Source: an uncultured Candidatus Saccharibacteria bacterium (lineage in GTDB: Bacteria; Patescibacteriota; Minisyncoccia; Minisyncoccales; GWA2-38-27). Taken from it: DNA of 64,000 nt. Shown here piece by piece: positions 6,691 through 64,000 of this stretch. Positions within the stretch are counted from its first letter, which is position 1, and each line of letters begins with the position of its first letter. The notes under the pieces are model-generated. The model made no database searches. It worked only from the letters and a program-made list of their open reading frames with translations, and was not told the DNA's origin. The stretch covers positions 15,890-79,889 of the forward strand of contig CAZDXV010000001.1 of assembly GCA_964509645.1 (NCBI GenBank), read 5' to 3'. Both the position numbers and the translations under genes were made by a program.

Positions 6691-6718
6691 GTTTATCTTT
6701 TTTAAAAGATAATGTATA

Positions 6719-7429
6719 GTGAACTTGATGTTAAGCATTGTCATACCTTCTTTAAATGAAGAAAAAGAACTTTCTTCTCTGCTAGACTCCATTAAAGCTC
6801 AGGGCTTTTCAGATTATGAGATAATTTTAGCTGACGCAGGATCCAGAGATAAAACCCTTGATATTGCCAAAGAGTACGGGTGTAAAATAATCAAAGGGGG
6901 CCTTCCTGCTCAAGGAAGGAATAAAGGAGCTTCTGTTTCTTCGGGAGAAATTATCCTTTTTCTTGACGCTGACGTAGTTTTGCCTCCCGCTTTTCTGAGT
7001 TCCGCTTTAAAGGAGTTTAAAAAGAGAAAGCTTGATATCGCTTCCTTTAATTTGCTTCCTAAAAAAAGAGGTTCTTTTCTTTTTAATTTTTTCTATAATC
7101 GGCCCATGATTTTCTTGGAAAAAGTTCTGCCTCATGCCGCTATGGGAATTTTAGTTAAAAAAGATGTTTTTGAGAAAATAGGAGGGTTTGACGAAACAAT
7201 AAAAATGGCAGAAGATCATGAATTTGCCAGGAGAGGAAAAAAAATAGCTAGCTACGGGGTAATAAGGTCTGTTCCTCTTTTTGTATCCGAAAGAAGATTT
7301 GAAAAAGAGGGCTGGATTAAAACAGCTTTAAAGTATCTGTTTTACGAGCTTTACACTATCTTTATAGGACCTATAAAATCGGACAAGGTTGCAAATCTTG
7401 ACGACTATTTTAAAAACAGAAAGAAATAA
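6719..7429 (+). CDS. family 2 glycosyltransferase
   Basis: LSIVIPSLNEE...DYEIILADAGSRDKT...FLDADV, the GT2 DXD architecture. Confidence 0.75.
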   Translation: MNLMLSIVIPSLNEEKELSSLLDSIKAQGFSDYEIILADAGSRDKTLDIAKEYGCKIIKGGLPAQGRNKGASVSSGEIILFLDADVVLPPAFLSSALKEFKKRKLDIASFNLLPKKRGSFLFNFFYNRPMIFLEKVLPHAAMGILVKKDVFEKIGGFDETIKMAEDHEFARRGKKIASYGVIRSVPLFVSERRFEKEGWIKTALKYLFYELYTIFIGPIKSDKVANLDDYFKNRKK

Positions 7430-7446
7430 GTTATAATAATATAATT

Positions 7447-16732: not shown

Positions 16733-16740
16733 GGGGGGGG
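16733..16740. repeat. G8 homopolymer in an AT-rich intergenic region (A7 immediately upstream)
   Basis: aaaaaaagggggggg read directly. Unusual in this low-GC background; ~135 nt upstream of the 16875 gene. Confidence 0.9.
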
Positions 16741-36701: not shown

Positions 36702-37801
36702 ATTTTTTAGATTTTAAAAAGCAACATTTCTCAATAAAAAAAGAAATTGAACTAGGTTTCAAAAAGGTTTTGGAAAGCCAAATTTTTATAAACGGAGAAG
36801 AAGTGGAAAAGTTTGAAAAAGAAGTAGCTGATTTTTGTGGTGTTAAAGAAGCTGTTGGTGTAAACTCCGGTACCGATGCTCTTTCTCTTTCTTTGAAAGC
36901 TTTTGGCATAAAAGAAGGAGATGAAGTAATAACCACTCCTTTCACTTTTATTTCTACAGCAGAAACCATTATTAATTTGGGAGCGAGGCCTGTTTTTACG
37001 GATATAAATAAAGATTTAAATATTTCTCCTGAAGAGATAGAAAAGAAAATTACAGATAGAACAAAAGCAATTATCCCCGTTCATTTATTTGGATTAGTTT
37101 CTCAAATGAATAAAATTTTAAAAATAGCTAGGAACCATGGTCTTTATGTGATAGAAGATGCAGCTCAAGCTTTTGGGTCGGGATACAAAGGGAAAAGAGC
37201 GGGTTCTATGGGGGATATAGGATGTTTTAGTTTTTTTCCGACAAAAAATCTAGGAGCGCTGGGGGACGGAGGCATGGCGGTTACAAATAATGAAAAATTA
37301 GCTGAGAAGATAAGACTTTTAAGAAATCATGGTTCTGATTTCGAAAATAAATATCGAAATTTAATCTTGGGAACTAACTCGAGATTGGATTCTATCCAGG
37401 CAGCTATTTTAAGAACCAAATTAAACTATATTGAAAGTTGGATTAGGGAAAGGAGAAATATTGCAAAAAATTATAACAAAAGACTGTCCGCAATAAAAGA
37501 AATTAAAACGCCTTCTTTTGCGAAAGACGATTATCATTCTTTTAATTATTATACAATAAGAGCTAAAAGAAGAGATGAATTAAAAATTTTCTTAGAAGAA
37601 AAAGGAATCGAGACCAAAATTTATTATTTTCTTCCCCTATATTCTCAACCAGCTTTAAATTTTTTAAAAGTCGATAAAAATTATTTTTCTGAAACAGAAA
37701 AGGCAGCTAAGGATGTTCTTTCTCTGCCCATTTATCCCGGTTTTGAAAATCAAGATTTTGTTGTTAATAAGATAAAAGAATTTTATAAAAGAATTTTATA
37801 G
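36689..37801 (+). CDS. DegT/DnrJ/EryC1/StrS-family PLP-dependent sugar aminotransferase (WbpE/FdtB-like)
   Basis: [15 protein letters not shown]...[16 protein letters not shown] (PLP-Lys region); 370 aa. Confidence 0.8.
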
Positions 37802-44367: not shown

Positions 44368-45492
44368 ATGAAAAATATTCAATTATTTAGAACAAATATA
44401 TCTGAAAAGTCTATAAAAGCAGTAATTAAGGTTTTGCGCTCTGGCTGGCTCAGCTTAGGCCCTAAAACAGCTGAATTTGAAGAAAAGTTCGCTGAATATG
44501 TAGGAGCAAAATATGCCGTAGCTCTCAATTCTTGTACAGCTGCTCTGCACCTTGCTTTAATCATCAGTGGTGTAAAAGAGGGAGATGAGGTTATTACTAC
44601 TCCCCTTACTTTTGTTTCTACCAATCATGTTATCTTATATCAAGGAGCACTTCCTGTTTTTGCTGATGTAAACCCTAAAACTTACTGTATTGATCCAGAA
44701 TCAATCAAGAAAATGATTACAAAGAAAACAAGGGCTGTAATAGTTATGCATTACGGAGGCCATCCCTGTGAGTTGGATAAAATATATAAAATAGCCAAAA
44801 AGCATAATCTTAAAGTAATTGAAGATGCAGCTCACGCTTGTGGTTCATCTTATAAGGGTAAAAAAATAGGTTCTTTTGGATTAACTTGCTTTAGTTTTCA
44901 TGCGGTCAAAAACTTGCCTACGGGTGATGGAGGAATGATAACAACAGATAATAAAAACTATTACGAAAGGTTAAAGAAATTAAGGTGGTTAGGCATAGAT
45001 AAGAGTACTTATGAGAGGACAAAAGCTGATAAAAAAAATTCAGATATCTATGCTTGGAAATATAATGTACCGGAAGTAGGATATAAATATCATATGAATG
45101 ATATTAATGCAGCGATTGGTATAGAACAATTGAAACTGTTAGACAAAGAAAATGCTTACCGAAGAAAATTAGCTAAAATATATAATCAGGGGTTGAGCCA
45201 CCCGGATATTATTTCTCTTCCCCACGTATCGCCAGATGTGGTTACTTCTCAACACTTATATGTAATTCAGGTTAAAAAAAGAGATGGCCTCATTGTTAAG
45301 TTAAAAGCTAACGGTATTGCTCCAGGAGTTCATTATAGGCCGAATAATATTTACCCTATGTATAATGGGTATAAGGCCGACATAGGAGTTGTTACAAAAA
45401 TATCGGGAAATATCATTTCTTTGCCAATGCATACGTTATTATCAAAAAAAGATGTTTCTGAAATAGCTAAAATAATTAATCAAGGTTGGTAA
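44368..45492 (+). CDS. DegT/DnrJ/EryC1/StrS-family sugar aminotransferase (second copy; ArnB/PseC-like)
   Basis: DAAHACGS...FSFHAVKNLPTGDGG PLP-Lys region; 374 aa. Confidence 0.8.
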   Translation: MKNIQLFRTNISEKSIKAVIKVLRSGWLSLGPKTAEFEEKFAEYVGAKYAVALNSCTAALHLALIISGVKEGDEVITTPLTFVSTNHVILYQGALPVFADVNPKTYCIDPESIKKMITKKTRAVIVMHYGGHPCELDKIYKIAKKHNLKVIEDAAHACGSSYKGKKIGSFGLTCFSFHAVKNLPTGDGGMITTDNKNYYERLKKLRWLGIDKSTYERTKADKKNSDIYAWKYNVPEVGYKYHMNDINAAIGIEQLKLLDKENAYRRKLAKIYNQGLSHPDIISLPHVSPDVVTSQHLYVIQVKKRDGLIVKLKANGIAPGVHYRPNNIYPMYNGYKADIGVVTKISGNIISLPMHTLLSKKDVSEIAKIINQGW

Positions 45493-50175: not shown

Positions 50176-51129
50176 ATGAAATTAATTATTCTTATTCCAG
50201 CCTATAACGAAGAAGATGCTATTGGTTCTGTAATTAATAAAATACCCGATGATATTTTTGGTATTGATGAAAAAGAAATTGTAGTGATTAATGATGGTTC
50301 TTCTGACAATACGGCTTCGAATTCAAAAGGGGCAGGAGCTCAAGTTTTTTCTCATCAAGAAAATAAAGGAGTAGGGATAGCTTTTCGAACAGGAATAGAA
50401 CAGTCATTAATAAGGAAAGCGGATCTTGTTGTAACTATTGATGGAGATGGGCAATTTAATCCAAGTGATATTTCAGAATTGATTAAGCCGGTGATTAAAA
50501 AAGAAGCAGATTTTGTTACGGCATCTCGTTTTTTAAAAAAAGAATTTATTCCTTTCAATATGCCCAAGATTAAAATTTGGGGAAATAAAATAGTAAGTAG
50601 GATAGTTAGTTTTTTGGTGGGAAAAAAATTTTATGATGTGACTTGTGGCTTTAGGGCTTATTCGAAAGAAGCTATATTAAATCTTAATTTATTCGGTGAT
50701 TTTACTTATACTCAGGAAACTTTTTTAGATTTAAGTTTTAAACAATTAAAAATAAAAGAAATTCCCATAAGAGTTCAGTATTTTTCTGATAGAAAATCAA
50801 GAGTTACAAAGAGTTTACTTAAGTATATTTTTCAAGTTTTTAAAATTATTCTTAAAACACTTAGAGATTATAAGCCCCTTAAATTTTTTGGTTCAATAGG
50901 GATTTTTATATTTTTATTGGGTATATTTGCGGATGTTTATATTTTTATATATTTTTTAAAGACAGGATTTTTTACCCCTTATAAATTTTTAGCTTTTATC
51001 GGAGGATTTTTAAATGCTTTAGGAGTGGGGATTTTTATACTTGGTTTAGTAGCTGATATGCTTTTGCGGTTAAGAAAAAATCAAGAAAAGCTGTTATATT
51101 ATCAGAAAAAAAAATTTTATGAAAATTGA
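50176..51129 (+). CDS. polyprenyl-phosphate glycosyltransferase (GtrB/ArnC/DPM1-like GT2 with C-terminal TM hairpin)
   Basis: LIILIPAYNEEDAIG...VVINDGSSDNT...TIDGDGQ (DXD), two C-terminal TM helices. Confidence 0.7.
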   Translation: MKLIILIPAYNEEDAIGSVINKIPDDIFGIDEKEIVVINDGSSDNTASNSKGAGAQVFSHQENKGVGIAFRTGIEQSLIRKADLVVTIDGDGQFNPSDISELIKPVIKKEADFVTASRFLKKEFIPFNMPKIKIWGNKIVSRIVSFLVGKKFYDVTCGFRAYSKEAILNLNLFGDFTYTQETFLDLSFKQLKIKEIPIRVQYFSDRKSRVTKSLLKYIFQVFKIILKTLRDYKPLKFFGSIGIFIFLLGIFADVYIFIYFLKTGFFTPYKFLAFIGGFLNALGVGIFILGLVADMLLRLRKNQEKLLYYQKKKFYEN

Positions 51130-51724
51130 AGAAAAATTTAGCGGCAAATATTTGTCAAAGAGTTTCATTATTAAGAAATTGGTTAAAAATTATTTTAATA
51201 ATATTGATGATATTATTTCCAATCTTGATGTTGAAAAAGTACTAGAAGTTGGTTGTGGTTTAGGATTTTCCACAGAGTATTTATCAAGAATGTTTGAAAA
51301 TAAAAAATTCCAGGCATCAGAATTTAATGACCGCTTATTAAAAAAGGCAAAAAAGAAAAACCCTTGTGTGAAAATAATCCAGGAATCTGTTTATGATTTG
51401 AAGAGAGAAGATAATTCTTTTGACTTGATAATGGTTTTAGAGGTTTTAGAACATCTAAAAAAACCTGAGTTAGCTCTAGAAGAAATTCATCGTGCAACTA
51501 ATCGTTATTGCTTAATAAGTGTTCCCAATGAACCCCTTTGGAGATTTCTAAATGTTATTAGGTTAAAGTATCTGAAGCGATTGGGTAATACGCCAGATCA
51601 CTATCAACATTGGTCAGAAAAAACCCTAGTGCGTTTTTTAGAGCCCCTTTTTTTAGTAAAAAAAATTAAAAAACCATTACCGTGGATATTTATTTTAGGA
51701 GAAAAAAGAAATTTTAAGATATGA
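51119..51724 (+). CDS. class I SAM-dependent methyltransferase
   Basis: VLEVGCGLGFST motif I, FDLIMVLEVLEHL. Confidence 0.6.
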   Translation: MKIEEKFSGKYLSKSFIIKKLVKNYFNNIDDIISNLDVEKVLEVGCGLGFSTEYLSRMFENKKFQASEFNDRLLKKAKKKNPCVKIIQESVYDLKREDNSFDLIMVLEVLEHLKKPELALEEIHRATNRYCLISVPNEPLWRFLNVIRLKYLKRLGNTPDHYQHWSEKTLVRFLEPLFLVKKIKKPLPWIFILGEKRNFKI

Positions 51725-52683
51725 ATTCTAATAAGATAAAATTTAATTCACCGTTTGTTTCAATAATTATTCCTTGTCGTAACGAAGAAAGATTTATTAA
51801 GGCGTGTCTAGATTCTATAATTAAAAATAATTTTCCTAAAGCAAACCTTGAGATTTTAGTAATAGATGGGTCATCAGAAGATAAAACCAAAGAGATAGTT
51901 AGTTTCTATATAGAAAAATATCCTTTTATTAAACTGTTTAATAATTCTAGAAAAATAAAGCCTGTTGCCTTGAATATAGGGATTAATAACTCAAGAGGGA
52001 GATATATCTTAATAGCGGATGCTCATTCTGTTTATCGAAAAGACTATATTTCCAAATGTATATATTATTTAGAAAATTACGGGGCTGATAATGTCGGGGG
52101 GGTGATAAAAACAAAACCTGCTTCTAGCAGTTTTATTGCAAAAGCTATTGCTCTTTGTTTGAGCCATTTTTTTGGAGCTGGAAATTCTTATTTCAGAACA
52201 GGCTCTGAAAGACCACAATGGGTAGATACTGTTTTTTGTGGTTGTTATAGAAGGGAAGTTTTTAATAAGGTAGGGCTTTTTAATGAGAATCTTGTGAGGT
52301 CTCAAGATATGGAATTTAACCTGAGATTAAAAAAAGCAGGAGGTAAAATTCTTTTAGTGCCTGATATTGTGAGTTATTATTACCCCAAAAGTAATTTAAA
52401 AGATTTTTTTCTTCATAACATAAAAGATGGAATATGGTCTATTTTTCCCTTAAAGTTTATTAAAACGCCATTTAAAATAAGGCATTATATCCCCCTTATT
52501 TTTGTTTTAACCTTGCCCTTGAGTATTTGGCCCTACATTATTCTTTCTATTTATTTCTCCTTGAAGATTGCTTTTAGAGATAAAGATTGGCGATATTTTT
52601 TTGTGATGCCACTTGTTTTTGGAATCCGCCATATTGGATATGGATTGGGTTCTCTTTTTGGTTTATTAAAGCTGATATTTTAA
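51721..52683 (+). CDS. family 2 glycosyltransferase with C-terminal membrane anchor (intact copy)
   Basis: VSIIIPCRNEERFI...EILVIDGSSEDKT...ADAHS, C-terminal TM helices. 3' 390 nt duplicated exactly at 59967-60356. Confidence 0.7.
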   Translation: MNSNKIKFNSPFVSIIIPCRNEERFIKACLDSIIKNNFPKANLEILVIDGSSEDKTKEIVSFYIEKYPFIKLFNNSRKIKPVALNIGINNSRGRYILIADAHSVYRKDYISKCIYYLENYGADNVGGVIKTKPASSSFIAKAIALCLSHFFGAGNSYFRTGSERPQWVDTVFCGCYRREVFNKVGLFNENLVRSQDMEFNLRLKKAGGKILLVPDIVSYYYPKSNLKDFFLHNIKDGIWSIFPLKFIKTPFKIRHYIPLIFVLTLPLSIWPYIILSIYFSLKIAFRDKDWRYFFVMPLVFGIRHIGYGLGSLFGLLKLIF

Positions 52684-52702
52684 TGCAAAGGAGAAAAGAG
52701 AA
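52271..52702. repeat. direct repeat copy 1 (~430 bp, perfect identity to 59943-60375)
   Basis: Base-for-base comparison from TAGGGCTTTTTAATGAG through the GT2 3' end and the first 20 nt of the methyltransferase gene. Confidence 0.85.
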
Positions 52703-53414
52703 AGAAATACAGCATTATGATAAAGCGGCGAACAGGTTTGAGAATAGAAGTTTGAGTCTTTTTTCTTTAGGCAGTTATGCTTTTCTGAGAAGCATTTTTA
52801 ATGATAATTACGGTAATGTTTTAGATTACGGTTGCGGAACAGGAGTACATTCTCAATGGCTAAAAGAGCATGGAGAGAGAGTAATGGGAGTTGATCTTTC
52901 TCAAAAATCAATTAATTTTGCTAGGAAAAAGGTGGAAGGCGTTGAGTTTTTGGTGAAAGATTGCGAAGAAACCGGATTTGACGATAATTATTTCGATATG
53001 GTTTTTGACGGAGGAACTTTTTCTTCTTTAGATTTAAACAAAGCTATAAAAGAGATAGTAAGAATTTTGAAGCCTAACGGAACTTTAGTTGGGATTGAAA
53101 CCCTGGGCCACAATCCACTTCTTAATTTGAAAAGAAGGATTAACAGATTGATAGGAAAAAGAACTAAATGGGCAACAGAACATATACTAAAAACGAAAGA
53201 TTTTGAAATGATTAAAAACCATTTTAGCAGGGCAGAAGCCCATTTTTTTCATCTTGTTTCTTGGTTGGCTTTTCCTTTTTTAAAATATCCTGGAGGAAAG
53301 TTTTTTTTGAGGTTTTTAGAGAAGATAGATATAATTCTAATTAGTTTATTTCCTTTTTTAGAGAAACATTCTTTTAAAATAGTGTTTATTCTCTCAAATC
53401 CTAAAAAGAAGTAA
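52683..53414 (+). CDS. class I SAM-dependent methyltransferase (allele A)
   Basis: VLDYGCGTGVHS motif I, FDMVFDGGTFSSLD. Start ATG overlaps the GT2 stop (TAATG). Paralog at 60356-61096. Confidence 0.65.
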   Translation: MQRRKEKEIQHYDKAANRFENRSLSLFSLGSYAFLRSIFNDNYGNVLDYGCGTGVHSQWLKEHGERVMGVDLSQKSINFARKKVEGVEFLVKDCEETGFDDNYFDMVFDGGTFSSLDLNKAIKEIVRILKPNGTLVGIETLGHNPLLNLKRRINRLIGKRTKWATEHILKTKDFEMIKNHFSRAEAHFFHLVSWLAFPFLKYPGGKFFLRFLEKIDIILISLFPFLEKHSFKIVFILSNPKKK

Positions 53415-54222
53415 TTAATGCATAATGCCACAAAGATGCTAACGATCGGCGAAGGCGGTATAATTATTACCGATGACAAGAAAATAGCAGATATAGTTAG
53501 AGAGTTAAGAGACTATACGGTCATACTGAATTCAAAATAAGGTATAATTACAAAATGACTGATATAGCGGCGGTTACGGATATTGCTTGGTTAAAGAAGC
53601 TGGATGGATTTATAGTGTGGAGACCTTAATTAAAGCAGTACCTTTTGTTTTAAATAAGTTGCCTGAAACAAAATTTATTATTGCAGGGGAGGGATTTGAG
53701 AGAAGAAAACTAAAAAAGCTGGCAGAATCTTTAAGAATATCAAAGAATATTAAGTTTGTGGGTCAGCTTTTTGAAAAACAGATTCCAGATTACTTAAAAT
53801 TAAGCGATATTTATGTGTCTACTTCTTTATCTGACGGTTCTTCCCTCTCTTTGATAGAGGCGATGTTTAGCGGTAGTTTTCCAGTGGTTACTCGTATTCC
53901 GGCCAATGAGGAATGGACTAAGGACGAAGTAAATGGTTTTTTGCGAACCTAGAAATTATCTCCAACTAGCGGAAAAGATTTTGAAGACTTTCTCAGTTTC
54001 TTTCTAGTGATATTAGGAAAAAAGTAGTTAAAAAAATCAAAAACTGGTTAAAAAAAGAAGATCGTCAGAAAAACATAGAATTAATGGAAAAGTATTATTC
54101 TCAATTAATTAATAAAAAAAGAGTTTTGATTAAACTAAAAATTTTACTAAAATCTAATAATAGGATATAAAGAATATATGTAAAAAGGTTGAATTAAAAA
54201 TTATTAATCTTTTTTTAAAAAA
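53415..54222 (+). pseudogene. decayed remnants of a DegT-family aminotransferase and a GT4 glycosyltransferase C-terminal domain
   Basis: Short frames MHNATKMLTIGEGGIIITDDKKIADIVRELRDY and MTDIAAVTDIAWLKKL (DegT PLP-region fragments). 53587-53952 encodes only a GT4 C-terminal half (KFIIAGEGFERRKLKKLAESL...LIEAMFSGSFPVVT). Broken frames continue to ~54150. Confidence 0.55.
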
Positions 54223-55239
54223 ATGAAAGGAATATCTCAAATTGTATTATGGGTTATTGTTATTTTGGTTATAGGAATCGGAGTTGCTTTATATTATTCT
54301 TTTCAGGAATCGACTGCGCCTGAAGAAGAAAAAACTGAAGGGGATAAGCTGGAAAAAATTAGATACGGAGGGCAATATTATCCTGGGGAGTTTGTGCTAT
54401 TTGGCGAACCTTCTTTTTGGTCAGATCGAGGCGTAGAGGTAGAGCATACTTTGTTTAGCTCAGGCGCTGAAAATAATGAAGCATTAGTTGCAGGAAACCT
54501 TGATATTAATTGTGGCTCTGACAGCAAAACCGTTGCTATATTCAACGCTATTCCAAACAAGGCCTTGATTATTGGTATTCTTCAGAGAGGGGACAGATAT
54601 GCTACTGTAGTAAGAGAAGATTCTAATTATGACAGCTGGAACGACTTAGCTGGTAAAAAGGTAGCTACTAGATTTGGTACTGGAGCAGAGGGAGTGTTGA
54701 GAAAATATTACGAAAGAGAAGGTTATTCCTGGGAAAATTTTCAGTATGTGAATCTTAAGATAGAAGATATGGCTGCTGCTCTAGAGAGCGGGCAGATTGA
54801 GGCTTTTACTGCCTGGGAACCTACTCCGGGCATAGTCGAAGCAAAAGGAATTGGGAGAGTGATGAGAACCTATGGAGATGTAGCTTTAGTGCCGGTATCA
54901 ATCCATACTACCAGAAAGTATGCTAGGGAACATCAAGAAGAGATAGTCAGATTTTTAGCAGCTCAATTAGATAAAGCGGAACTAATTAGGGAGAATCCCA
55001 AAGAAGCCGCGAAGATTGCTAGTACTGCTGCGGCTAAAAAAGGTATTACCGTATCTTCTGAAGCATTTGAAAAAGTATTTAGCAGAATTGATTTTACCAT
55101 TGAGTTCGACCAAAAGATTATTGATGCCATAAACCAAACTGCTGACTTTTTAGTGTCTCAAGGAAAGATTCAAGAGAAACCGGAGTTAGAATGGGATACT
55201 AGTTTTATTGAGGAGGCAAAAAAACTTCGGCAGGAATAA
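54223..55239 (+). CDS. ABC transporter substrate-binding protein, NitT/TauT (SsuA/NMT1-like) family
   Basis: N-terminal TM/signal, NMT1-like fold segments; followed by two permeases and an ATPase of the same family. GC visibly higher than neighbours. Confidence 0.7.
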   Translation: MKGISQIVLWVIVILVIGIGVALYYSFQESTAPEEEKTEGDKLEKIRYGGQYYPGEFVLFGEPSFWSDRGVEVEHTLFSSGAENNEALVAGNLDINCGSDSKTVAIFNAIPNKALIIGILQRGDRYATVVREDSNYDSWNDLAGKKVATRFGTGAEGVLRKYYEREGYSWENFQYVNLKIEDMAAALESGQIEAFTAWEPTPGIVEAKGIGRVMRTYGDVALVPVSIHTTRKYAREHQEEIVRFLAAQLDKAELIRENPKEAAKIASTAAAKKGITVSSEAFEKVFSRIDFTIEFDQKIIDAINQTADFLVSQGKIQEKPELEWDTSFIEEAKKLRQE

Positions 55240-55278
55240 AATCCTAAAAGCGCTTTTAATTCCAAAACTGTTTGATCT

Positions 55279-56097
55279 ATGGATAAATTAAAAGAAAAGT
55301 TTATCACGGTTTTATATTGCTTGATTCCTCTTGCGTTTGTTTTTGTGGGATGGGAGATATGTTCTAGATTAGAGATTGTAGAACCTGCTTTGCTTTCCAG
55401 GCCTTCCGAAATAATGAGAGTGCTTAACAGGTTACTTACCGAACAAACTGATGCTCAACATTCAGTCTTATTAACCCATATCTTTTCTAGTCTTTACCGT
55501 TTGTTTTTATCTTTAATTTTAGCTAGTTTGATAGGTATTAGCTTGGGAATTTTAATGGGAATTAACCGCTATGTTCGTAAATTTTTTGATCCCTTGCTGA
55601 GCGCTTTGGCACCTATCCCGGGGATAGCCTGGACCCCGCTTTTTTTAATCTGGCTGGGATTTGGTGACCTTACTATTATTACTGTTGGTTTTTTGGCTGC
55701 TTTTTTTCCTATTGTTTATAATACTGCAGCCGGAGTAAGAAGTATTAATCAAAAATTGGTTTGGGCGGCTCAGTCAGTAGGAGTTAATAAATTATCTCTT
55801 TTAATAAAAGTATATATTCCCTCTTCTTTAAACTATATTTTTACCGGTTTCAAACTTGGATTGGCTCGAGGATGGAGGACGATTATTGCTGTAGAAATGA
55901 TAGCGGCTACTCTTTGGGGTTTAGGTTTTATGATTTTTGACGCGAGAGAATATTTACAGTCCTCTGTTATCTACGGAGGTATAATGATTTTAGCTTTTAC
56001 CTATCTTTTTATTGAAAAAGTCATAATTAGCTGGATGGAAAAAAAGACTGTAACCAAATGGGGGATGGTCAGAGAAATTAACGAAAAGCAACAATGA
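55279..56097 (+). CDS. ABC transporter permease (NitT/TauT family)
   Basis: BPD_transp_1 EAA-like loop ...GLARGWRTIIAVEMIAA; 6 TM. Confidence 0.75.
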   Translation: MDKLKEKFITVLYCLIPLAFVFVGWEICSRLEIVEPALLSRPSEIMRVLNRLLTEQTDAQHSVLLTHIFSSLYRLFLSLILASLIGISLGILMGINRYVRKFFDPLLSALAPIPGIAWTPLFLIWLGFGDLTIITVGFLAAFFPIVYNTAAGVRSINQKLVWAAQSVGVNKLSLLIKVYIPSSLNYIFTGFKLGLARGWRTIIAVEMIAATLWGLGFMIFDAREYLQSSVIYGGIMILAFTYLFIEKVIISWMEKKTVTKWGMVREINEKQQ

Positions 56098-56882
56098 AGA
56101 AACTAAAAGATAAAATTAGAGAGTTAATTTTTTTCTTGATTCCTTTTGCGGTAGTGATTATTATTTGGCAACTAATTGTGGATTTTAGTTTGGTTAAATC
56201 CTCAATTCTTCCTTCTCCCTGGCAAGTAGTTTCGCATTTTTTTTCCCTGGTTTATCCAGAGCCAATTTTGCTTACTCATCTCAGTAAAAGTTTTTATAGA
56301 TTGATTTTTGGTTTTATCTTAGGGGCTTGTGGTGGTGTTTTGTCGGGAATTTTAATGGGGAGTTTCCGATGGGTAAGACGGGCCTTTTCTCCTCTAATTA
56401 GTTTTTTTATTTCCGTTCCTACTATTGCTTGGGTTCCTATACTATTGATTTTTCTTGGCATTGGAAATAAAAGTATTATTATTGCAATTTTTCTTGGCTG
56501 TTTTTTCCCAATAGTATATAATACAATGGAAGGGATAAAAGGAGTGAATAAGCATTATATCTGGGCTTCCAAAACAATGGGAGCTAAGAATTTAGTTATT
56601 TTTGCTAAAGTCCTTTTCCCCTGCTCTCTGGTTTCAATTTTAACCGGTTTAAGATTGGGACTTGGTTATTCTTGGAGAGCTTTGGTCGGAGCGGAGATGT
56701 TAGCGGCTGCCAGCTGGGGTTTGGGCTATATGATTTACAATGCTAGGGCTTTCTGTGATATAGAGACAATGTTTTTGGGTTTAATATTAATATGTTTAGG
56801 AGGGACGGTTTTAGATCAATTAATAATAAGAACAATAGAAAAGAAAACCATAGAAAAATGGGGATTGGTAACAAAAAAATAA
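56094..56882 (+). CDS. ABC transporter permease (NitT/TauT family), second copy
   Basis: Paralogous to the previous gene (GLGYSWRALVGAEMLAA). Confidence 0.75.
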   Translation: MKKLKDKIRELIFFLIPFAVVIIIWQLIVDFSLVKSSILPSPWQVVSHFFSLVYPEPILLTHLSKSFYRLIFGFILGACGGVLSGILMGSFRWVRRAFSPLISFFISVPTIAWVPILLIFLGIGNKSIIIAIFLGCFFPIVYNTMEGIKGVNKHYIWASKTMGAKNLVIFAKVLFPCSLVSILTGLRLGLGYSWRALVGAEMLAAASWGLGYMIYNARAFCDIETMFLGLILICLGGTVLDQLIIRTIEKKTIEKWGLVTKK

Positions 56883-57658
56883 AAATTGCTGCTGTAAATC
56901 TAAAAAAAAGTTTTGTGGATAGTGAAAATAAGAAAGTACTGGCTTTAGATAATTTTAATTTAGAAATCAAGGAAAAAGAATTTGCAGTAATAGTAGGGCC
57001 TTCTGGTTGCGGGAAGTCCACTTTTTTGTATATGGTGGGTGGTTTTGACCAGCCGACCAGTGGCCAAGTTCTAATTCAACAAAAACCGGTTACAAAACCG
57101 GGTCCAAACAGAGGATTTATTTTTCAGGAATATGTTTTGTTTCCCTGGTTAAATGTTTTAAAAAATGTTAGTTTTGGACTGAGAAATCAGGGTTTTTCTA
57201 GGAAGGAAGCAGAAAAGGTAGCTGGGCAATATATTAAAATGGTAGGATTAGAAGGGTTTGAAAGATCTTATCCTCACACTTTATCTGGGGGAATGAAACA
57301 GAGAGTGGCTATTGCTAGAGCATTAGCTTATGATCCAGAGATTTTATTGTTGGATGAACCATTTGCTTCTTTGGATGCCCAGACTAGAAAGATTATGCAG
57401 CAGGAATTGGTAAGAATTTGGCAGAAAACTAAAAAAACGGTAGTATTTGTTACTCATTCTGTAGTAGAGGCAGCTTATCTTGCTGACCGAATTTTTGTAA
57501 TGACCGCTAGACCAGGTAAAATAAAAGCGGTAATCGAGGTAAATATTCCAAGGCCAAGAGATTACTCAGGAAAAAAATATCTGACTATTAGAAAAAGAGC
57601 TCTTTCTCTTTTGGATCAAGAAGTTAAAAAGGAAAGAAAACTGGATAAAAATTATTGA
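56858..57658 (+). CDS. ABC transporter ATP-binding protein (NitT/TauT family)
   Basis: Walker A GPSGCGKST, signature LSGGMKQRVAIARAL, Walker B ILLLDEP. Likely start ATG at 56858 (ORF-track start 56792 is upstream, in frame). Confidence 0.8.
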   Translation: MGIGNKKIKIAAVNLKKSFVDSENKKVLALDNFNLEIKEKEFAVIVGPSGCGKSTFLYMVGGFDQPTSGQVLIQQKPVTKPGPNRGFIFQEYVLFPWLNVLKNVSFGLRNQGFSRKEAEKVAGQYIKMVGLEGFERSYPHTLSGGMKQRVAIARALAYDPEILLLDEPFASLDAQTRKIMQQELVRIWQKTKKTVVFVTHSVVEAAYLADRIFVMTARPGKIKAVIEVNIPRPRDYSGKKYLTIRKRALSLLDQEVKKERKLDKNY

Positions 57659-57661
57659 AAC

Positions 57662-58306
57662 ATGTTTAATAATTTTAAAAAAATATTAGTATTAGCTCCT
57701 CATACGGATGATGGAGAATTGGGGTGTGGAGGGAGCATTGCTAAGTTTTTAGAAGAAGGAAAGGAAATTTATTATATAGTTTTTTCTACGGCTCAGACCT
57801 CGGTTAAAAAAGGATTTTCTAAAAATATTTTAGAGATTGAAGTTAAAAAAGCCACAAGCATATTGGGAATTTCTCCTGAAAACTTAATTATTTATCATTA
57901 TCCAGTCCGTCGTTTTCCTCAATACCGGCAAGAGATTTTAGAAGAGTTAATAAAACTTAAGAGAAAAATTAACCCCAATCTAGTTTTTATTCCCTCTATA
58001 AATGATATTCATCAAGATCATCGGGTTATAGCCGAGGAAGGATTAAGAGCTTTTAAAAGACAAAGCCTCTTGGGATATGAAGAGCCTTGGAATAATATAG
58101 TTTTTGCTACAAGAAGTTTTATTCCTTTAGAAAAAAAACATGTGGAGAAAAAAGTTGAAGCATTGAACTGTTACCGGTCTCAAAAACATCGGGCTTATTT
58201 AAATCAAGATTTAATTTGGAGTTTGGCGAAAACTAGAGGAGTACAAATAGAAGGAGAATATGCTGAGGCCTTTGAGGTAATGAGATGGATTTTTGATGGA
58301 AAATAA
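57662..58306 (+). CDS. PIG-L/LmbE-family N-acetylglucosaminyl deacetylase
   Basis: LVLAPHTDDGELGCGGSIAKF and HQDH metal-binding motifs. Confidence 0.75.
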   Translation: MFNNFKKILVLAPHTDDGELGCGGSIAKFLEEGKEIYYIVFSTAQTSVKKGFSKNILEIEVKKATSILGISPENLIIYHYPVRRFPQYRQEILEELIKLKRKINPNLVFIPSINDIHQDHRVIAEEGLRAFKRQSLLGYEEPWNNIVFATRSFIPLEKKHVEKKVEALNCYRSQKHRAYLNQDLIWSLAKTRGVQIEGEYAEAFEVMRWIFDGK

Positions 58307-58336
58307 GACAAATTATACAATTTTTAGTACTCCTTA

Positions 58337-59401
58337 ATGGTTGATAAAAATATGAAAAAAATTAAAGTTATCCTTACTGCTTGTGGATGTCCTGGAGCAT
58401 CTACTTTTATTCAAAAATTAAAAAATAATAAAGAAAGAGAAATAGAGATTGTGGGCGTAGATGCAGATAGTCAGGCCACAGGCCGATTTTTAGTTGATGA
58501 ATTTTACAAAGTACCCTTAGCTGACTCCAAAGAATATATTCCTGCTATGCTTGACTTGGCAGAAAAAGAGAAAGCAGATGTTTTATTTCCAGAATCAAGT
58601 TATGAAATGTATCCATTGGCTATTAATAAAAGAAAGTTTGAAAAACTGGGAACTGAGGTTATAGTTTCTGATCCAGAGCCTATAGCTATCGCCAATAATA
58701 AGTATAAAATGTATGAAATACTCAGAAAAGAAACAGATATAAAATTGCCAAAGTACTACTATCCTAAAAACTTAGATGACTTTGTCAATCTTGTTTATGA
58801 GTTGGGATATCCTAAAAGGCCAGTTTGTTTTAAGCCTCACATAGGAAAAGGAAGTCGGGGTTTCCGTTTTATTGATGCTGTCGTAGACAGAGAGGAATTA
58901 TTGATGAAATATAAACCAAACAGCAGATATATGTCCCTAGAAGAATTTATTGAGATATTTAAAAACAAGAAGAATTTTCCAGATCTTCTTTTGATGGAAC
59001 GAGTGAGAGGAATGGAGTATACTACAGATCCTATTGCTTTGAACGGCAAAATGCTTATGTGCACCACTAAAACAGTAGAAGAGGCCAGATGGGGAATTAT
59101 TGTTAGGGGTGAGTTAGTAGATAGACCAAAATTAGTAGAGCAAACTAAGAAAATATTAGGTTCTATTAAGTTAAGTTACAATGTAAACCTTCAGTTTATA
59201 GAAGATAAACTTATAGAAATAAACCCTCGGGTTTCCACTTTTATTTATCAGGATGATTTGATTGCTCCTTACCTTTCTATTAAGTTAGCCTTAGGTGAGC
59301 TAATCCCAGCTCAAGTAGCAAAATACCAAGATAAAATTGATTACGGTAGGAAAATGGTGAGATATATGGATCAGGCTTTCTGGAAACCAAAGAAAAAATA
59401 A
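58337..59401 (+). CDS. ATP-grasp fold ligase
   Basis: ATP-grasp architecture with pre-ATP-grasp N-domain and EINPR-type C-terminal motif (LIEINPRVS); 354 aa. Confidence 0.55.
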   Translation: MVDKNMKKIKVILTACGCPGASTFIQKLKNNKEREIEIVGVDADSQATGRFLVDEFYKVPLADSKEYIPAMLDLAEKEKADVLFPESSYEMYPLAINKRKFEKLGTEVIVSDPEPIAIANNKYKMYEILRKETDIKLPKYYYPKNLDDFVNLVYELGYPKRPVCFKPHIGKGSRGFRFIDAVVDREELLMKYKPNSRYMSLEEFIEIFKNKKNFPDLLLMERVRGMEYTTDPIALNGKMLMCTTKTVEEARWGIIVRGELVDRPKLVEQTKKILGSIKLSYNVNLQFIEDKLIEINPRVSTFIYQDDLIAPYLSIKLALGELIPAQVAKYQDKIDYGRKMVRYMDQAFWKPKKK

Positions 59402-59408
59402 TGTTTCC

Positions 59409-60356
59409 ATGAAAAATAATGACCCTTTTGTTACAATTATTATACCCTGCAGAAATGAGGAGAAATATATTAAAAAATACCTGAATTCTATTATTGCTAA
59501 TGATTATCTAAAAGAAAAGTTAAAGGTTTTAGTGATAGAGGGGATAAGCGTAGATAAAACAAGAAAGATTTTAAAGAATTATCTAGATAAGTATTCTTTT
59601 ATTAAAACTCTAAATAATCCTAAAAAGATTACTCCTGTTGCTTTTAATCTTGGAGTAAAAAACTTTTATGGAGATTTAGTATGCTTATCGGAGCTTGTTC
59701 TGAAATCAGTAGAAAATTTACAAGTAGAAGCGTTAAAGCCATAAAAAAATATAATATGGATTGCATAAGTAGGTATTTCTAAAGTTCTGGTTCTAGAGAA
59801 TACATTAATTTCTAGAAGTATAGCAATAGTACTTCGCTCTTTTTTTGGCATGGGTAATGTTAAATATAGATTGAATCCTCAAAAGGTCGGATCAAGCGAT
59901 ACAGTCACAAAACCCTGATACAAAAAAGAAGTTTTCAAAAAAATAGGGCTTTTTAATGAGAATCTTGTGAGGTCTCAAGATATGGAATTTAACCTGAGAT
60001 TAAAAAAAGCAGGAGGTAAAATTCTTTTAGTGCCTGATATTGTGAGTTATTATTACCCCAAAAGTAATTTAAAAGATTTTTTTCTTCATAACATAAAAGA
60101 TGGAATATGGTCTATTTTTCCCTTAAAGTTTATTAAAACGCCATTTAAAATAAGGCATTATATCCCCCTTATTTTTGTTTTAACCTTGCCCTTGAGTATT
60201 TGGCCCTACATTATTCTTTCTATTTATTTCTCCTTGAAGATTGCTTTTAGAGATAAAGATTGGCGATATTTTTTTGTGATGCCACTTGTTTTTGGAATCC
60301 GCCATATTGGATATGGATTGGGTTCTCTTTTTGGTTTATTAAAGCTGATATTTTAA
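59409..60356 (+). pseudogene. disrupted paralog of the GT2 at 51721: N-terminal 111 codons (59409-59744), scrambled middle, then a C-terminal 129 codons identical to the intact copy
   Basis: 59409 ORF VTIIIPCRNEEKYI...VLVIEGISVDKT parallels the intact GT2 N-terminus but terminates. 59745-59942 has no frame. 59967-60356 is identical to 52294-52683. Confidence 0.6.
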
Positions 60357-60375
60357 TGCAAAGGAGAAAAGAGAA
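59943..60375. repeat. direct repeat copy 2 (~430 bp, perfect identity to 52271-52702)
   Basis: See copy 1. The copies are ~7.67 kb apart in the same orientation. Confidence 0.85.
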
Positions 60376-61096
60376 CGAAATACAGCACTATGACAAAGCT
60401 ACTCATAGCTTTAAGGGAAGAGGGGATTTCGAAGGTTTTAGCCCTTCTTTTTTGGCCAGCCACAAGTTTTTGAGAAAGATTTTAAAAGGAAAATCAGGAA
60501 TTTTTTTAGATTACGGATGTGGAATAGGAATTCACTCTTGCTGGCTAAAAGAAATAGCGGATGAATTAGTCGGCATTGATCTTTCCAAAAAATCTCTTGA
60601 TATTGCAAGACAAAATGTAAAGGGAGTCAGTTTTTTGTTAATGGATTGTGAGAATATGGAGTTTGAGAATAATTCCTTTGATATTATCTTTGACGGAGGA
60701 ACTTTCTCTTCTTTGGATTTAAACAAAGCTCTTTCTGAAATGGCCCGAGTTTTAAAACCCGAGGGCTTCTTAATCGGCATTGAAACTCTTGGTCACAATC
60801 CCATACTTAACCTCAAAAGGAAGATTAACAAAGTAAGGGGCAAGAGGACAGATTGGGCGGTAGAACACATTTTCCGGATGGAAGACCTGGAAACAGTAGA
60901 AAAGTATTTTGGTAAAACAGAGCTTTATTTCTTTCATTTTCTTTCCTGGATAGCATTTCCTCTTTTAAATTGGCCGGGAGGGAAGATTTTTTTAAGAGTG
61001 ATGGAAAAGATTGATAAATTCTTTTTAAAAATCTGCCCTTATTTTAAAAAATATTCTTTTAAGCTAGTTTTTATTTTTTCAAAACCTAAAAAATAG
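60356..61096 (+). CDS. class I SAM-dependent methyltransferase (allele B, diverged paralog of 52683-53414)
   Basis: MQRRKENEIQHYDKA..., FLDYGCGIGIHS motif I, IFDGGTFSSLDLNKA. Roughly half the residues identical to allele A, despite an identical 5' leader and first 7 codons. Confidence 0.65.
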   Translation: MQRRKENEIQHYDKATHSFKGRGDFEGFSPSFLASHKFLRKILKGKSGIFLDYGCGIGIHSCWLKEIADELVGIDLSKKSLDIARQNVKGVSFLLMDCENMEFENNSFDIIFDGGTFSSLDLNKALSEMARVLKPEGFLIGIETLGHNPILNLKRKINKVRGKRTDWAVEHIFRMEDLETVEKYFGKTELYFFHFLSWIAFPLLNWPGGKIFLRVMEKIDKFFLKICPYFKKYSFKLVFIFSKPKK

Positions 61097-61379: not shown

Positions 61380-61973
61380 ATGAGTAAGCGTTTATTTGAC
61401 ATATTTTTTTCTTTTTTTGGATTAATAATTCTTTCTCCTTTGTTTTTGATATCAATTATTCTGGTAAAAATCTTTTCTCCAGGACCTGCTTTTTACAAAT
61501 CTAAAAGAATAGGGAAAAAAGGCAAAGAATTCAATATGTTAAAGTTCAGAACAATGGTTGTAGGAGCTGATAAAATTGGTGGACCTTCTACTGCAGCGGA
61601 TGATGAAAGGCTAACTAAAATAGGGTGGTTTTTAAAGAAGTTCCAACTTGATGAATTGCCTCAATTATTTAATGTTTTAAAAGGCGATATGAGCCTTGTA
61701 GGTCCTAGGCCTGAAGTTCCCTTTTATGTTAATATGATGACAGAAGAAGATAAGAATATTATCCTTTCTATCAGGCCGGGAATAACAGACCTAGCTTCCT
61801 TATGGAATTTCCATGAAGGAGAGATATTGAAAGGAAGTCTTGATCCCGAAAAGACCTATCAGGAGAAAATAAGGCCTAAAAAGCTGGAGCTTCAGAAAAA
61901 ATATGTCAGAGAGAGCTCCTTGCTATTGGATATTAAAATAATTTGTAAAACTATTTTAAAGATATTTAAATGA
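61380..61973 (+). CDS. small monotopic polyprenyl-phosphate sugar-1-phosphate transferase (PglC/WbaP C-domain-like, initiating enzyme)
   Basis: KRLFDIFFSFFGLIILSPLFL re-entrant helix, MLKFRTM, DELPQLFNVLKGDMSLVGPRP (Bac_transf signature). Confidence 0.75.
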   Translation: MSKRLFDIFFSFFGLIILSPLFLISIILVKIFSPGPAFYKSKRIGKKGKEFNMLKFRTMVVGADKIGGPSTAADDERLTKIGWFLKKFQLDELPQLFNVLKGDMSLVGPRPEVPFYVNMMTEEDKNIILSIRPGITDLASLWNFHEGEILKGSLDPEKTYQEKIRPKKLELQKKYVRESSLLLDIKIICKTILKIFK

Positions 61974-63249: not shown

Positions 63250-64000
63250 AAGTTCCATTTGTAAACTACGGATTACAGTACAAAAACTTAAAAGAAGAGA
63301 TAGATAAAGCTATCTTCAAGGTTTTAGAAGGGGGAGATTTAATATTAAGAGAGGATGTGGAAGAATTTGAAAAGAAATTAGCTGATTTTGTAGGAACAAA
63401 GTTTGCTGTTTCCTTAAACAGCGGAACGGACGCTTTATTCTTTTCCTTAAAAGCTTTAGGGATAGGAAAAGGAGACGAAGTAATAACTGTCTCTCACACT
63501 TTTGTAGCTTCAATTTCTACAATAGTTCAGGCGGGAGCTACTCCTGTTTTAGTTGATGTAAAGGAAGACTATTTAATGGATGAAAATAAGCTGGAAGAAG
63601 CTATAACAGAGAAGACAAAAGCTATTATGCCTGTTCATTACAATGGAAGAATGTGTAATATGGAAAAGATCAAAGAAATTGCAGATAAACACAGCCTTTA
63701 TATCATAGAAGACGCAGCTCAGGGCTTAGGATCTTCTTTTAAGAATAAAAAGGCAGGCTCTACGGGCATTACAGGATGCTTTAGCTTTTATCCTGCTAAA
63801 ATACTGGGTTGTTTTGGAGACGGTGGAGCTTTAACTACAAATTCTGAGGAGATAGCAGAAGAAGTAAAACTTTTAAGAGATCATGGTCAGAAAACTAAGA
63901 CTAACATAGTTGAATTCGGTTGGAATTCCAGATTAGATAATATTCAGGCAGCTGTTTTGAATATTAAAATAGATCAGCTACCTTCCTGGATTGAGAGAAG
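63246..64000 (+). CDS. DegT/DnrJ/EryC1/StrS-family sugar aminotransferase (third copy), 3' end beyond the window
   Basis: ATG at ~63246 (MKVPFVNYGLQYKNLKEEIDKAI...); DAAQGLGS...FSFYPAKILGCFGDGG; frame open to the window end. Confidence 0.75.
   Translation, partial: MKVPFVNYGLQYKNLKEEIDKAIFKVLEGGDLILREDVEEFEKKLADFVGTKFAVSLNSGTDALFFSLKALGIGKGDEVITVSHTFVASISTIVQAGATPVLVDVKEDYLMDENKLEEAITEKTKAIMPVHYNGRMCNMEKIKEIADKHSLYIIEDAAQGLGSSFKNKKAGSTGITGCFSFYPAKILGCFGDGGALTTNSEEIAEEVKLLRDHGQKTKTNIVEFGWNSRLDNIQAAVLNIKIDQLPSWIER

Follow-up and report, generated by a model that had tools for sequence, protein, structure and literature searches.

Perfect 432-bp direct repeats bracketing a 7.7-kb segment in a predicted surface-glycan locus of an uncultured patescibacterium

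Recombination in surface-polysaccharide loci

Ectopic gene conversion, between paralogs or between a gene and a pseudogene, takes place in bacterial surface-polysaccharide loci, and the locus described here resembles such cases in carrying a perfect tract inside otherwise diverged homologous copies within one genome, in the apparent overwriting of part of a pseudogene by a functional copy, and in being a mosaic, recombination-prone glycan locus that contains gene debris. It differs in that the tract spans the junction between the tail of a family-2 glycosyltransferase (GT2) gene and the start of a methyltransferase (MT) gene, in that the host belongs to the Patescibacteria, and in that we infer which copy was donor and which recipient. 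A second point of comparison is Campbell-type, or ‘ends-in’, integration with gap repair, known from plasmid integration genetics, in which a direct duplication of the homology flanks the insert in register. The topology is the same as that of the repeat-bracketed segment reported here, but vector and replicon are absent, and the mismatch in age between a decayed insert and perfect repeats speaks for two separate events, one of integration and one that made the repeats identical. In the pilE/pilS silent cassettes of Neisseria and in invertible and shufflon switches a variable surface-related gene lies behind a common recombinogenic sequence, as the MT gene does here; however, the present locus has no cassette archive, inverted repeats, recombinase or reversibility, and the common coding part amounts to 6 codons.

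In the Haemophilus influenzae type b (Hib) cap locus, a tandem duplication with one truncated bexA, recombination between direct repeats leads to capsule loss (Kroll et al. 1988, as cited in PMC6535587). The likeness lies in direct repeats in a surface-polysaccharide locus with one defective gene copy, and in a one-step collapse by homologous recombination that alters the surface phenotype, which for the present locus is a prediction from sequence. The Hib repeats are copies of the whole 18-kb locus flanked by IS1016, and their collapse abolishes export, whereas the repeats here are 432 bp long, lack IS elements and bracket different genes, and their collapse would leave an intact operon of ancestral type. 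A tandem duplication of the Hib cap type was considered and rejected, as only 432 bp are duplicated and the bracketed genes are no copy of the flanking locus.

The repeat pair and its gene context

The window, the 64-kb stretch of DNA analysed here, is predicted to hold a surface-glycan biosynthesis locus of more than 35 kb from an uncultured, Parcubacteria/Paceibacteria-like member of the Patescibacteria; the ORFs across 28-64 kb all have biosynthetic or transport annotations. The features in and around the bracketed segment are as follows.

51119-51724, + strand: upstream anchor, a class I SAM methyltransferase of 201 aa that neighbours the GT2 in relatives as well (PF08241; homologue at the same place in the related locus L004, 66%)
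51721-52683, + strand: GT2_L, intact 320-aa family-2 glycosyltransferase (PF00535, E=8.6e-30; identical to P0001)
52271-52702, + strand: R1, repeat copy 1 (432/432 identical to 59944-60375)
52683-53414, + strand: MT_A, intact 243-aa SAM methyltransferase (PF08241; identical to P0121)
53418-53537, + strand: DegT/DnrJ/EryC1 aminotransferase debris, 40-codon internal fragment (PF01041, E=1.4e-6, positions 171-201/360)
53587-53952, + strand: GT1/GT4 glycosyltransferase debris, C-terminal, 121-aa ORF (PF00534, positions 29-139/172 only)
54223-57658, + strand: ABC importer of the sulfonate/taurine/nitrate (SsuA/TauA-like) type (Pfam NMT1)
57662-58306, + strand: PIG-L family de-N-acetylase (PF02585)
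58337-59401, + strand: PylC-like ATP-grasp ligase (PF21360, PF15632, PF02655)
59409-59943, + strand: pseudo-GT2, 5′ part (offset 7673, then 7672, then 7673; N-terminal 88 codons in frame)
59944-60375, + strand: R2, repeat copy 2, forming the pseudo-GT2 3′ end and the opening 20 nt of MT_B
60356-61096, + strand: MT_B, intact 246-aa methyltransferase directly 5′ of the sugar transferase (PF08241; identical to P0122)
61380-61973, + strand: downstream anchor, Bac_transf initiating sugar transferase (PF02397, E=1e-59)

Base-by-base comparison at an offset of 7673 yields a single unbroken 432-bp run with 432/432 matches between R1 and R2, the sole long repeat within the 64-kb window. The preliminary description had recognized this identity but began the second copy at 59943, one base too early. 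Both the linkage of R1 to R2 and the strict identity of the copies rest on the deposited assembly, and assemblers can collapse near-identical repeats to one consensus. The repeat contains the last 137 codons and stop of the GT2 gene, followed by 20 nt (6 codons, MQRRKE) of the MT gene; the figure of 129 GT2 codons given earlier belongs instead to an ORF in copy 2 that starts at a GTG. Flanking sequence outside R1 and R2 is 62-70% identical at the nucleotide level, with short stretches of elevated similarity on either side (52243-52270 and 52703-52740). Homology thus extends past the repeat both ways, the 5′ part of the pseudo-GT2 aligning with GT2_L at the same offset and MT_A with MT_B at 70% nt identity. 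Since orthologous GT2 3′ ends elsewhere reach only 71-79% nt identity to the tract, 100% over 432 bp far exceeds what chance or purifying selection would give.

The MT genes properly begin with the ATG at 52683 and 60356, which overlaps the GT2 stop (TAATG): P0121 (243 aa), P0122 (246 aa) and the family N-termini, M-E-x-R-K-x-K-E-I-x-Y-Y-D-K, begin there, and the 1-nt overlap is kept in the related loci L003 and L004 too. The identical MT leader proposed before turns out to be a 32-codon TTG-start ORF (52587/60260) that runs out of frame over the GT2 tail, and the common part of the supposed alternative alleles reduces to six family-conserved N-terminal codons and the conserved TAATG junction. 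Both proteins score well above the PF08241 cut-off of 21.2 bits (MT_A 82, MT_B 78), and their amino acid identity of 57% agrees with an earlier estimate, made by eye, of roughly half. MT_A is at most 57% identical to every other sequence, MT_B included; it retains 77/82 conserved columns and has a terminal branch of 0.337 against a median of 0.176, which makes it a divergent protein on a long branch within the MT family that partners GT2. MT_B shares 83% of its residues with P0123 and 65% with P0125. Because MT_A and MT_B are sisters in 0/200 bootstraps (MT_B and P0123 in 200/200) and a relative of MT_B at 83% exists elsewhere, MT_A and MT_B are not recent duplicates. A protein search for the donor lineage of MT_A found no relative above 57%.

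GT2_L scores 104 bits against PF00535, above the curated cut-off of 23.3, and has thousands of homologues, the closest at 62-72% identity and largely from Patescibacteria by source names. Conservation within the family peaks at the C-terminus (76% median identity versus 60%). The preliminary description had called the GT2 upstream of the second copy broken, and its lesions bear this out: two compensating frameshifts, a TGA stop and a change of DAH to GAC with loss of the catalytic Asp. Its frame-corrected middle has a median identity to the family of 35%, compared with 61% for GT2_L, while its N-terminus has 56.5%, compared with 60%, and matches GT2_L at 66% nt and 56% aa. The N-terminal 88 codons are barely decayed and the middle heavily so, a counterpoint to the history proposed below, and a single simple decay history fails for this pseudogene. 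A donor search with the N-terminus yielded nothing beyond the ORF in the window itself and short fragments of up to about 60% identity, except that one 64-aa fragment reaches 73% over half of the query. That searches with MT_A and with the pseudo-GT2 both left the donor lineage absent is a further counterpoint.

Within the bracketed segment the importer consists of a binding protein (54223-55239), two permeases (55279-56097 and 56094-56882) and an ATPase (about 56858-57658), and its NCBIfam matches (SsuA_fam, TauC/SaoP, SaoA) all fall under the equivalog cut-offs. Four unrelated metagenome contigs also pair a PIG-L gene, at 44-61% identity, with the ATP-grasp gene, and ATP-grasp homologues at 59-65% adjoin PIG-L genes. 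Downstream, the Bac_transf homologues in matching position are 82% (L004) and 74% (L001) identical, and split transketolase genes lie 3′ of Bac_transf.

Comparison with relatives, a check proposed at the outset, indicates how the locus looked before. GT2 and MT are adjacent in L003-L007, L009, L010 and L012, and GT2-MT-Bac_transf are directly adjacent in 7 of the 13 Patescibacteria loci compared, none of which has an importer, PIG-L or ATP-grasp gene between. The order in L004, GT2(317)-MT(197)-GT2(329)-MT(248)-Bac_transf-transketolase at 65-86% identities, is that of the window minus 7.7 kb. The direct adjacency of GT2, MT and sugar transferase in related loci, L004 included, makes the bracketed segment, 7.2 kb between the two repeat copies, a lineage-specific insertion, and by the GT2-MT-Bac_transf order of seven related loci the position of MT_B is the ancestral one. 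In a compositional test for foreign origin the insert genes lie inside the window range for GC and GC3 and none is an outlier, so a foreign origin has no compositional support.

Origin of the repeat

Module insertion, then decay, and then a later, recent gene conversion is the probable explanation of the R1/R2 structure. From an ancestral core order of MT(201 aa)-GT2-MT-Bac_transf-transketolase, a second GT2-MT module, foreign or anciently paralogous, would have integrated in register at the GT2-3′/MT-5′ junction, bringing with it a DegT gene, a GT1 gene, the sulfonate/taurine-type ABC importer, the PIG-L deacetylase and the ATP-grasp ligase and giving GT2_L-MT_A-...-GT2′-MT_B. The genome encodes ComEC, which makes DNA uptake a plausible entry route. 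The redundant GT2′, DegT and GT1 genes then decayed, as the state of the sequence shows, to pseudogene debris. Finally, much after the insertion and recently, 432 bp of the live GT2_L-MT_A junction would have overwritten the pseudogene-MT_B counterpart non-reciprocally, so that MT_A and MT_B now both follow the same upstream sequence, its stop and start overlapping in TAATG. GT2_L is the probable donor of the tract, and pairing would be favored by this tract being the most conserved part of the GT2 family.

The timing of conversion follows from the juxtaposition of a tract with 0/432 differences and a heavily decayed pseudogene, which argues for a later, recent event from the live GT2. Homologous copies occur in the same genome, identity within the tract, silent sites included, is far higher than in flanks and orthologues, and the flanks are phylogenetically discordant. 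The earlier suggestion that perfect identity beside diverged flanks reflects recent conversion or duplication is strengthened by pseudogene decay and MT phylogeny. Conversion between sequences of about 75% identity is normally inefficient owing to the homology requirements of RecA pairing; the R tracts were probably about that similar before conversion, and we count this against the conversion step.

Two other accounts of the same structure appear unlikely to us. A single-step duplicative insertion, the less improbable of the two, would have a circularised or ‘ends-in’ foreign fragment (...ABC-PIG-L-ATP-grasp-GT2′(5′)...gap...MT_A-DegT′-GT1′) invade both sides of the GT2 tail, with the gap repaired from the chromosome and integration by crossover duplicating the 432 bp, so that insert and repeat arose together and recently. 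Such an origin would account for the repeat bounding the insert exactly and in register, for the absence of the insert in relatives, for the stretches of elevated similarity beside the repeat at 52243-52270 and 52703-52740, and for the normal module, ATP-grasp-GT2′-MT_A-DegT-GT1, that appears when the segment is read as a circle; the presence of ComEC also fits. It is set against heavy decay of the pseudo-GT2 middle and of the DegT and GT1 fragments beside 0/432 differences in R, so that the donor would already have carried the pseudogenes, and against an insert composition matching the genome backbone and searches that turned up no donor.

An assembly artefact, which we consider quite improbable, would mean that the true chromosome reads GT2_L-R-MT_B and that the 7.67-kb loop is a strain variant or an excised circle, or that near-identical copies were collapsed. 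The repeat is longer than short-read k-mers, the other traversal of the graph gives the relatives' order plus a 7,673-bp circle, and the structure comes from a single deposited assembly. The Logan contig L030 (SRR7048227_60506, 3,975 bp), from an independent assembly, bears on both sides of this question. It matches 55999-59973 exactly over its whole length and stops 30 nt (k-1, for a k-mer size that we take to be k = 31) inside R2, as expected for the graph branch at a true repeat. Its break at R means that k-mer data alone cannot link across the repeat; yet both contexts of R occur in reads, the contig running from the pseudo-GT2 into R and branching exactly there. The loop also lacks replication and mobility genes and carries a GT2 pseudogene and an MT homologous to chromosomal ones, and both repeats lie inside a contig of 131,918 bp, away from its ends. 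Another strain with R at 100% but flanks at 57-66% is less parsimonious than intragenomic exchange. The tested proteins of the genome are singletons among 15 billion sequences, from one NCBI contig, with the Logan fragment as the only sequence besides; exact look-ups of GT2_L, MT_A, MT_B, P0001 and a partial peptide encoded by R gave zero matches in the contig index, and a literature search for SRA run SRR7048227 found nothing.

Recombination between the repeats

Homologous recombination between R1 and R2 could delete the 7,673-bp unit, which is mechanically plausible. Deletion would restore the GT2-MT_B-Bac_transf order of relatives at the cost, one-way, of MT_A and of the decoration module of importer, deacetylase and ligase. 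The fusion of the intact GT2 to MT_B foreseen in the preliminary description is therefore sound as far as the product goes, which has the gene order found in L004. The further proposal of a built-in antigenic switch is not supported: the repeats are direct, there is one alternative cassette, and no recombinase, invertase, integrase or tRNA lies nearby.

A programmed switch, in which the repeats would be kept since excision and re-integration toggle decoration and MT to give surface antigenic variation, is in our judgment extremely improbable. In favor of such a device, RecA-dependent deletion works efficiently on perfect direct repeats, the gene order left after deletion is viable and present in relatives, MT_A and MT_B are both intact, and the locus codes for surface glycan functions. 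Recombination between direct repeats is irreversible, however, and leads to loss, the deletion circle of 7,673 bp being non-replicating. ORF annotations across 28-64 kb reveal no recombinase, invertase, integrase or transposase in or near the segment; there are no IS elements at the R1/R2 borders, no significant inverted repeats, at the borders or elsewhere, in a repeat scan of the window, and no tRNAs or Rfam matches in its 64 kb. The window offers only one alternative cassette and two MT copies, pseudogene remnants within the unit point to passive decay rather than a maintained device, and a comparable bracketed cassette occurs in 0/13 related loci. A scan for promoters and terminators gave counts equal to those of shuffled controls. 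A mobile element or genomic island was likewise rejected, with no integrase or transposase, no tRNA or att target, no atypical composition, and a repeat that is 432 bp of coding sequence; the lack of a recombinase, att-like target or inverted repeats tells against both this and a programmed switch. The evidence favors a by-product of insertion and gene conversion over a dedicated switch.

Active use of the repeats, with cells that have and cells that lack the 7.7-kb unit coexisting in the population, appears very doubtful from the sequence at hand. If it occurred, there would be two surface-glycan chemotypes, one with MT_A and decoration and one with MT_B alone; recurrent gene conversion would maintain the perfect identity of the repeats, and an episymbiotic, reduced-genome bacterium would show glycan polymorphism. 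The structure makes a testable prediction, a deletion junction 52270-R-60376 together with a 7,673-bp circle, and provides a clean example for repeat quality control in MAG assemblies.

The R1/R2 case reveals no new mechanism and looks like ordinary glycan-locus plasticity. In it the entry of a module at a conserved gene junction is joined by the decay of redundant genes and by a recent tract of gene conversion, and the case places the recombinational plasticity of surface-glycan loci, familiar from cultured pathogens, in an uncultured, reduced-genome member of the CPR/Patescibacteria.

The exact repeat and the genes it brackets

Positions 52271-52702 (R1) and 59944-60375 (R2) form a single unbroken identity at an offset of 7673, and a repeat finder returned the same pair, its reported length capped at 300 nt. 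In base-by-base comparison 432 of 432 bases match, as the preliminary description had it except that copy 2 was there begun one base early, at 59943; this "perfect" identity rests on the assembly, and nearly identical repeats can be collapsed by assemblers. A repeat search found no further long repeats in the 64-kb window. Because orthologous tracts in other genomes are only 71-79% identical to the repeat, its identity reflects neither chance nor purifying selection. The repeat carries the last 137 codons and stop of the upstream glycosyltransferase (GT2_L), followed by 20 nt of a methyltransferase gene.

Features of the repeat-bracketed region
51721-52683: GT2_L, intact family-2 glycosyltransferase, 320 aa (PF00535, 104 bits)
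52683-53414: MT_A, methyltransferase whose start lies in R1 (PF08241)
53418-53537: internal DegT aminotransferase fragment, 40 codons (PF01041, profile positions 171-201)
53587-53952: C-terminal GT1 fragment
54223-57658: ABC importer, SsuA/TauA sulfonate/taurine/nitrate type
57662-58306: PIG-L de-N-acetylase
58337-59401: PylC-like ATP-grasp ligase
59409-59943: pseudo-GT2, GT2 pseudogene in three parts upstream of R2

The region belongs to one large glycan locus spanning 28-64 kb of the window. Encoded there are a Wzx-type flippase and a Wzy_C/TPR protein, several GT1, GT2 and GT4 enzymes, PMT_2, the sugar transferase Bac_transf, a split transketolase, UDP-glucose dehydrogenase, two DegT aminotransferases, acetyltransferases and an epimerase. 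The PIG-L and ATP-grasp genes are a conserved pair: four unrelated metagenome contigs have them side by side (44-65% identity), and in L028 the pair adjoins GT4-type glycosyltransferases. Domain annotation and a tRNA scan found no recombinase, transposase or tRNA in or near the bracketed unit.

The preliminary description's identical methyltransferase leader is not supported: its 32 codons come from the longer TTG-start ORFs at 52587 and 60260, in which the GT2 tail is translated in the wrong frame. The methyltransferases start instead at the ATG overlapping the GT2 stop (TAATG; 52683 and 60356), because P0121 (243 aa) and P0122 (246 aa) begin there as deposited, BLAST alignments to relatives run from residue 1, and the family N-terminus is conserved (M-E-x-R-K-x-K-E-I-x-Y-Y-D-K); therefore only the 20 nt encoding MQRRKE fall inside the repeat. 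The one-base stop/start overlap recurs in the related loci L003 and L004. Median amino acid identity of the GT2 C-terminus is 76%, versus 60% for the N-terminus. In the closest GT2 relative (P0002; L004, 2181-3170), 9 aa of the C-terminal membrane-associated region are duplicated in tandem and in frame (LTLPLSIWP twice), within the part homologous to the repeat.

The gene that ends in copy 2 was correctly described as a broken GT2. This pseudogene is a mosaic, almost normal at its N-terminus and strongly decayed in its middle, with a tail that reproduces GT2_L perfectly. The opening 88 codons keep their frame, with 56% identity to GT2_L and a median of 56.5% to the family, close to the value for GT2_L itself (60%). 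The middle contains two compensating frameshifts (offset 7673 to 7672 to 7673), a TGA at a family Cys/Gly position and the catalytic D-A-H changed to G-A-C; frame-corrected, it has a median of 35% (maximum 41%) to the family, versus 61% for GT2_L in the same region. The N-terminal 88-111 codons (59409-59744) form an intact ORF, and a single history of neutral decay fails to account for such unevenness along the gene; residual constraint, or a patch of earlier conversion, may have contributed.

Other features of the window include a G7 homopolymer in GT2_L (52096-52102; Gly-Gly codons GGG GGG in a gene of 30% GC); the window has just two other G runs of at least seven, 16733-16740 (G8) and 17975-17981 (G7). 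The homopolymer in GT2_L could be a slipped-strand site, though a short one. A weak three-copy direct repeat (37107-37212, 44774-44879 and 63661-63766; 63-72%) marks paralogous DegT-type aminotransferase genes of the glycan locus, and the nearness of its 7,667-bp spacing to the 7,673-bp period is coincidental. The only sizeable minus-strand ORF (15162-16187, 341 aa) encodes an HTH_38 domain, as is typical of IS30-type transposases, but is ~36 kb away from the repeat and has no evident link to it. Two large proteins, secreted or on the cell surface, contain acidic Glu/Asp-rich low-complexity coding repeats (18829-18972 and 26526-26630): a 1442-aa protein with LTD, BACON and PQQ-like beta-propeller domains and a 673-aa protein with PG_binding_1.

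Gene order in relatives and the two methyltransferases

The locus sits on a 131,918-bp NCBI contig, each of its checked proteins is a singleton cluster among ~15 billion sequences, and homologues with names are annotated Patescibacteria, Paceibacterota or Parcubacteria. Locus L004 (JGI Ga0366834_1158298) reads GT2(317 aa)-MT(197)-GT2(329)-MT(248)-Bac_transf-transketolase, with identities to the window genes of 86, 66, 71, 65 (to MT_B, the methyltransferase whose start lies in R2), 82, 76 and 82%; this is the window order minus 7.7 kb. GT2-MT-Bac_transf adjacency recurs in L005, L006, L007, L009, L010 and L012, and GT2 followed by Bac_transf in L001, L002 and L011. None of the 13 loci compared has an importer, PIG-L or ATP-grasp gene between GT2/MT and Bac_transf, and the methyltransferase adjoining GT2 is always closer to MT_B than to MT_A. 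From this gene order and these partners, comparison indicates that GT2_L and MT_B hold the ancestral positions and that the 7,673-bp unit (one repeat plus 52703-59943) is a lineage-specific insertion. L005 and L012, two contigs of MAG MFD04408.bin.1.52, carry copies of the GT2-MT-Bac_transf-transketolase region 88-96% identical over ~20 kb; either the region is truly duplicated on a large scale, or the bin combines two strains.

MT_A and MT_B are 57% identical. MT_B has closer relatives in P0123 (L003; 83%) and P0125 (L004; 65%), and MT_A is at most 57% identical to every other sequence compared. In neighbour-joining trees omitting the first 16 residues, MT_A and MT_B were sisters in 0 of 200 bootstraps and MT_B grouped with P0123 in all 200; the terminal branch of MT_A is 0.337 against a median of 0.176. 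MT_A nevertheless looks functional, since it keeps 77 of the 82 columns conserved in at least 90% of sequences. P0123 lies within a sulfation locus beside a GT2 that differs considerably (48-55% across its N-terminal and middle parts), which argues that GT2 and MT modules have been re-paired at their junction during evolution. The surroundings of P0123 (L003, JGI MLSed_10008763, 2727-7748) include a sulfotransferase, a CysQ-like phosphatase and a fused ATP-sulfurylase/APS kinase, suggesting a sulfated glycan; together with the sulfonate/taurine-type importer of the window, these genes hint at sulfur-containing glycan decoration in these lineages.

Assembly and proposed history

Over its full 3,975 bp, Logan contig SRR7048227_60506 (L030) matches the window exactly (55999-59973), and its right end lies exactly 30 nt inside R2. 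In a k = 31 de Bruijn assembly such as Logan, a unitig from the pseudo-GT2 side has to stop at precisely this point if the first 31-mer of the repeat has a second predecessor, and so both left contexts are present in the SRR7048227 reads. The contig end supports a real repeat and does not establish linkage across it. The same graph could be traversed as GT2_L-repeat-MT_B plus a 7,673-bp loop, a reading we disfavour: the loop carries no replicon functions and would need a separate molecule or strain with a repeat 100% identical between flanks only 57-66% identical. The left end of L030 falls inside permease gene 1, where there is no repeat; a population SNP at 55998, or else low coverage, might account for this break. 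Logan lacks most of the source genome's other genes.

For the inserted unit we propose that a second GT2-MT module with accessory genes joined in register at the GT2-tail/MT-start junction, probably by homologous recombination, given the exact register and the conserved GT2 C-terminus. The window also has a gene for the competence channel ComEC (PF03772; 1084-2505), which makes DNA uptake a plausible way in for foreign glycan modules. The redundant second GT2, the DegT gene and the GT1 gene decayed, as their present state shows. A recent non-reciprocal exchange would then have copied 432 bp from the live gene onto the pseudogene: a neutral tail should match the decay of the adjacent middle, yet there are 0 differences in 432, and conversion in the opposite direction would damage the only functional GT2. 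The earlier proposal of recent gene conversion is thereby supported and refined; the decay of the adjacent pseudogene and the non-sister placement of the two methyltransferases strengthen it. That the restored tail benefits MT_B, by giving it native-operon upstream context and the stop/start overlap, is pure speculation.

Deletion potential and its meaning

Perfect direct repeats of 432 bp at a spacing of 7.2 kb lend themselves well to RecA-dependent deletion. Recombination between R1 and R2 would yield GT2_L-MT_B-Bac_transf, a gene order proven viable in relatives, and would irreversibly remove MT_A and the importer/deacetylase/ligase module. The preliminary description took this for a built-in antigenic-variation switch, a reading that is not supported. 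We argue instead that the unit is a by-product of locus evolution, because no recombinase accompanies it, the repeats run in direct rather than inverted orientation, only one alternative cassette exists, the unit contains pseudogene debris, and a similar cassette between repeats is absent from all 13 related loci. In a known parallel, the Haemophilus influenzae type b cap locus, recombination between direct repeats is reported to cause capsule loss (Kroll et al. 1988, cited in PMC6535587); the present case differs from it in scale, IS involvement and outcome. In sum, the structure is a fresh instance of the well-known plasticity of polysaccharide loci, and its value, though modest, lies mainly in offering a case from a CPR bacterium that can be put to the test.
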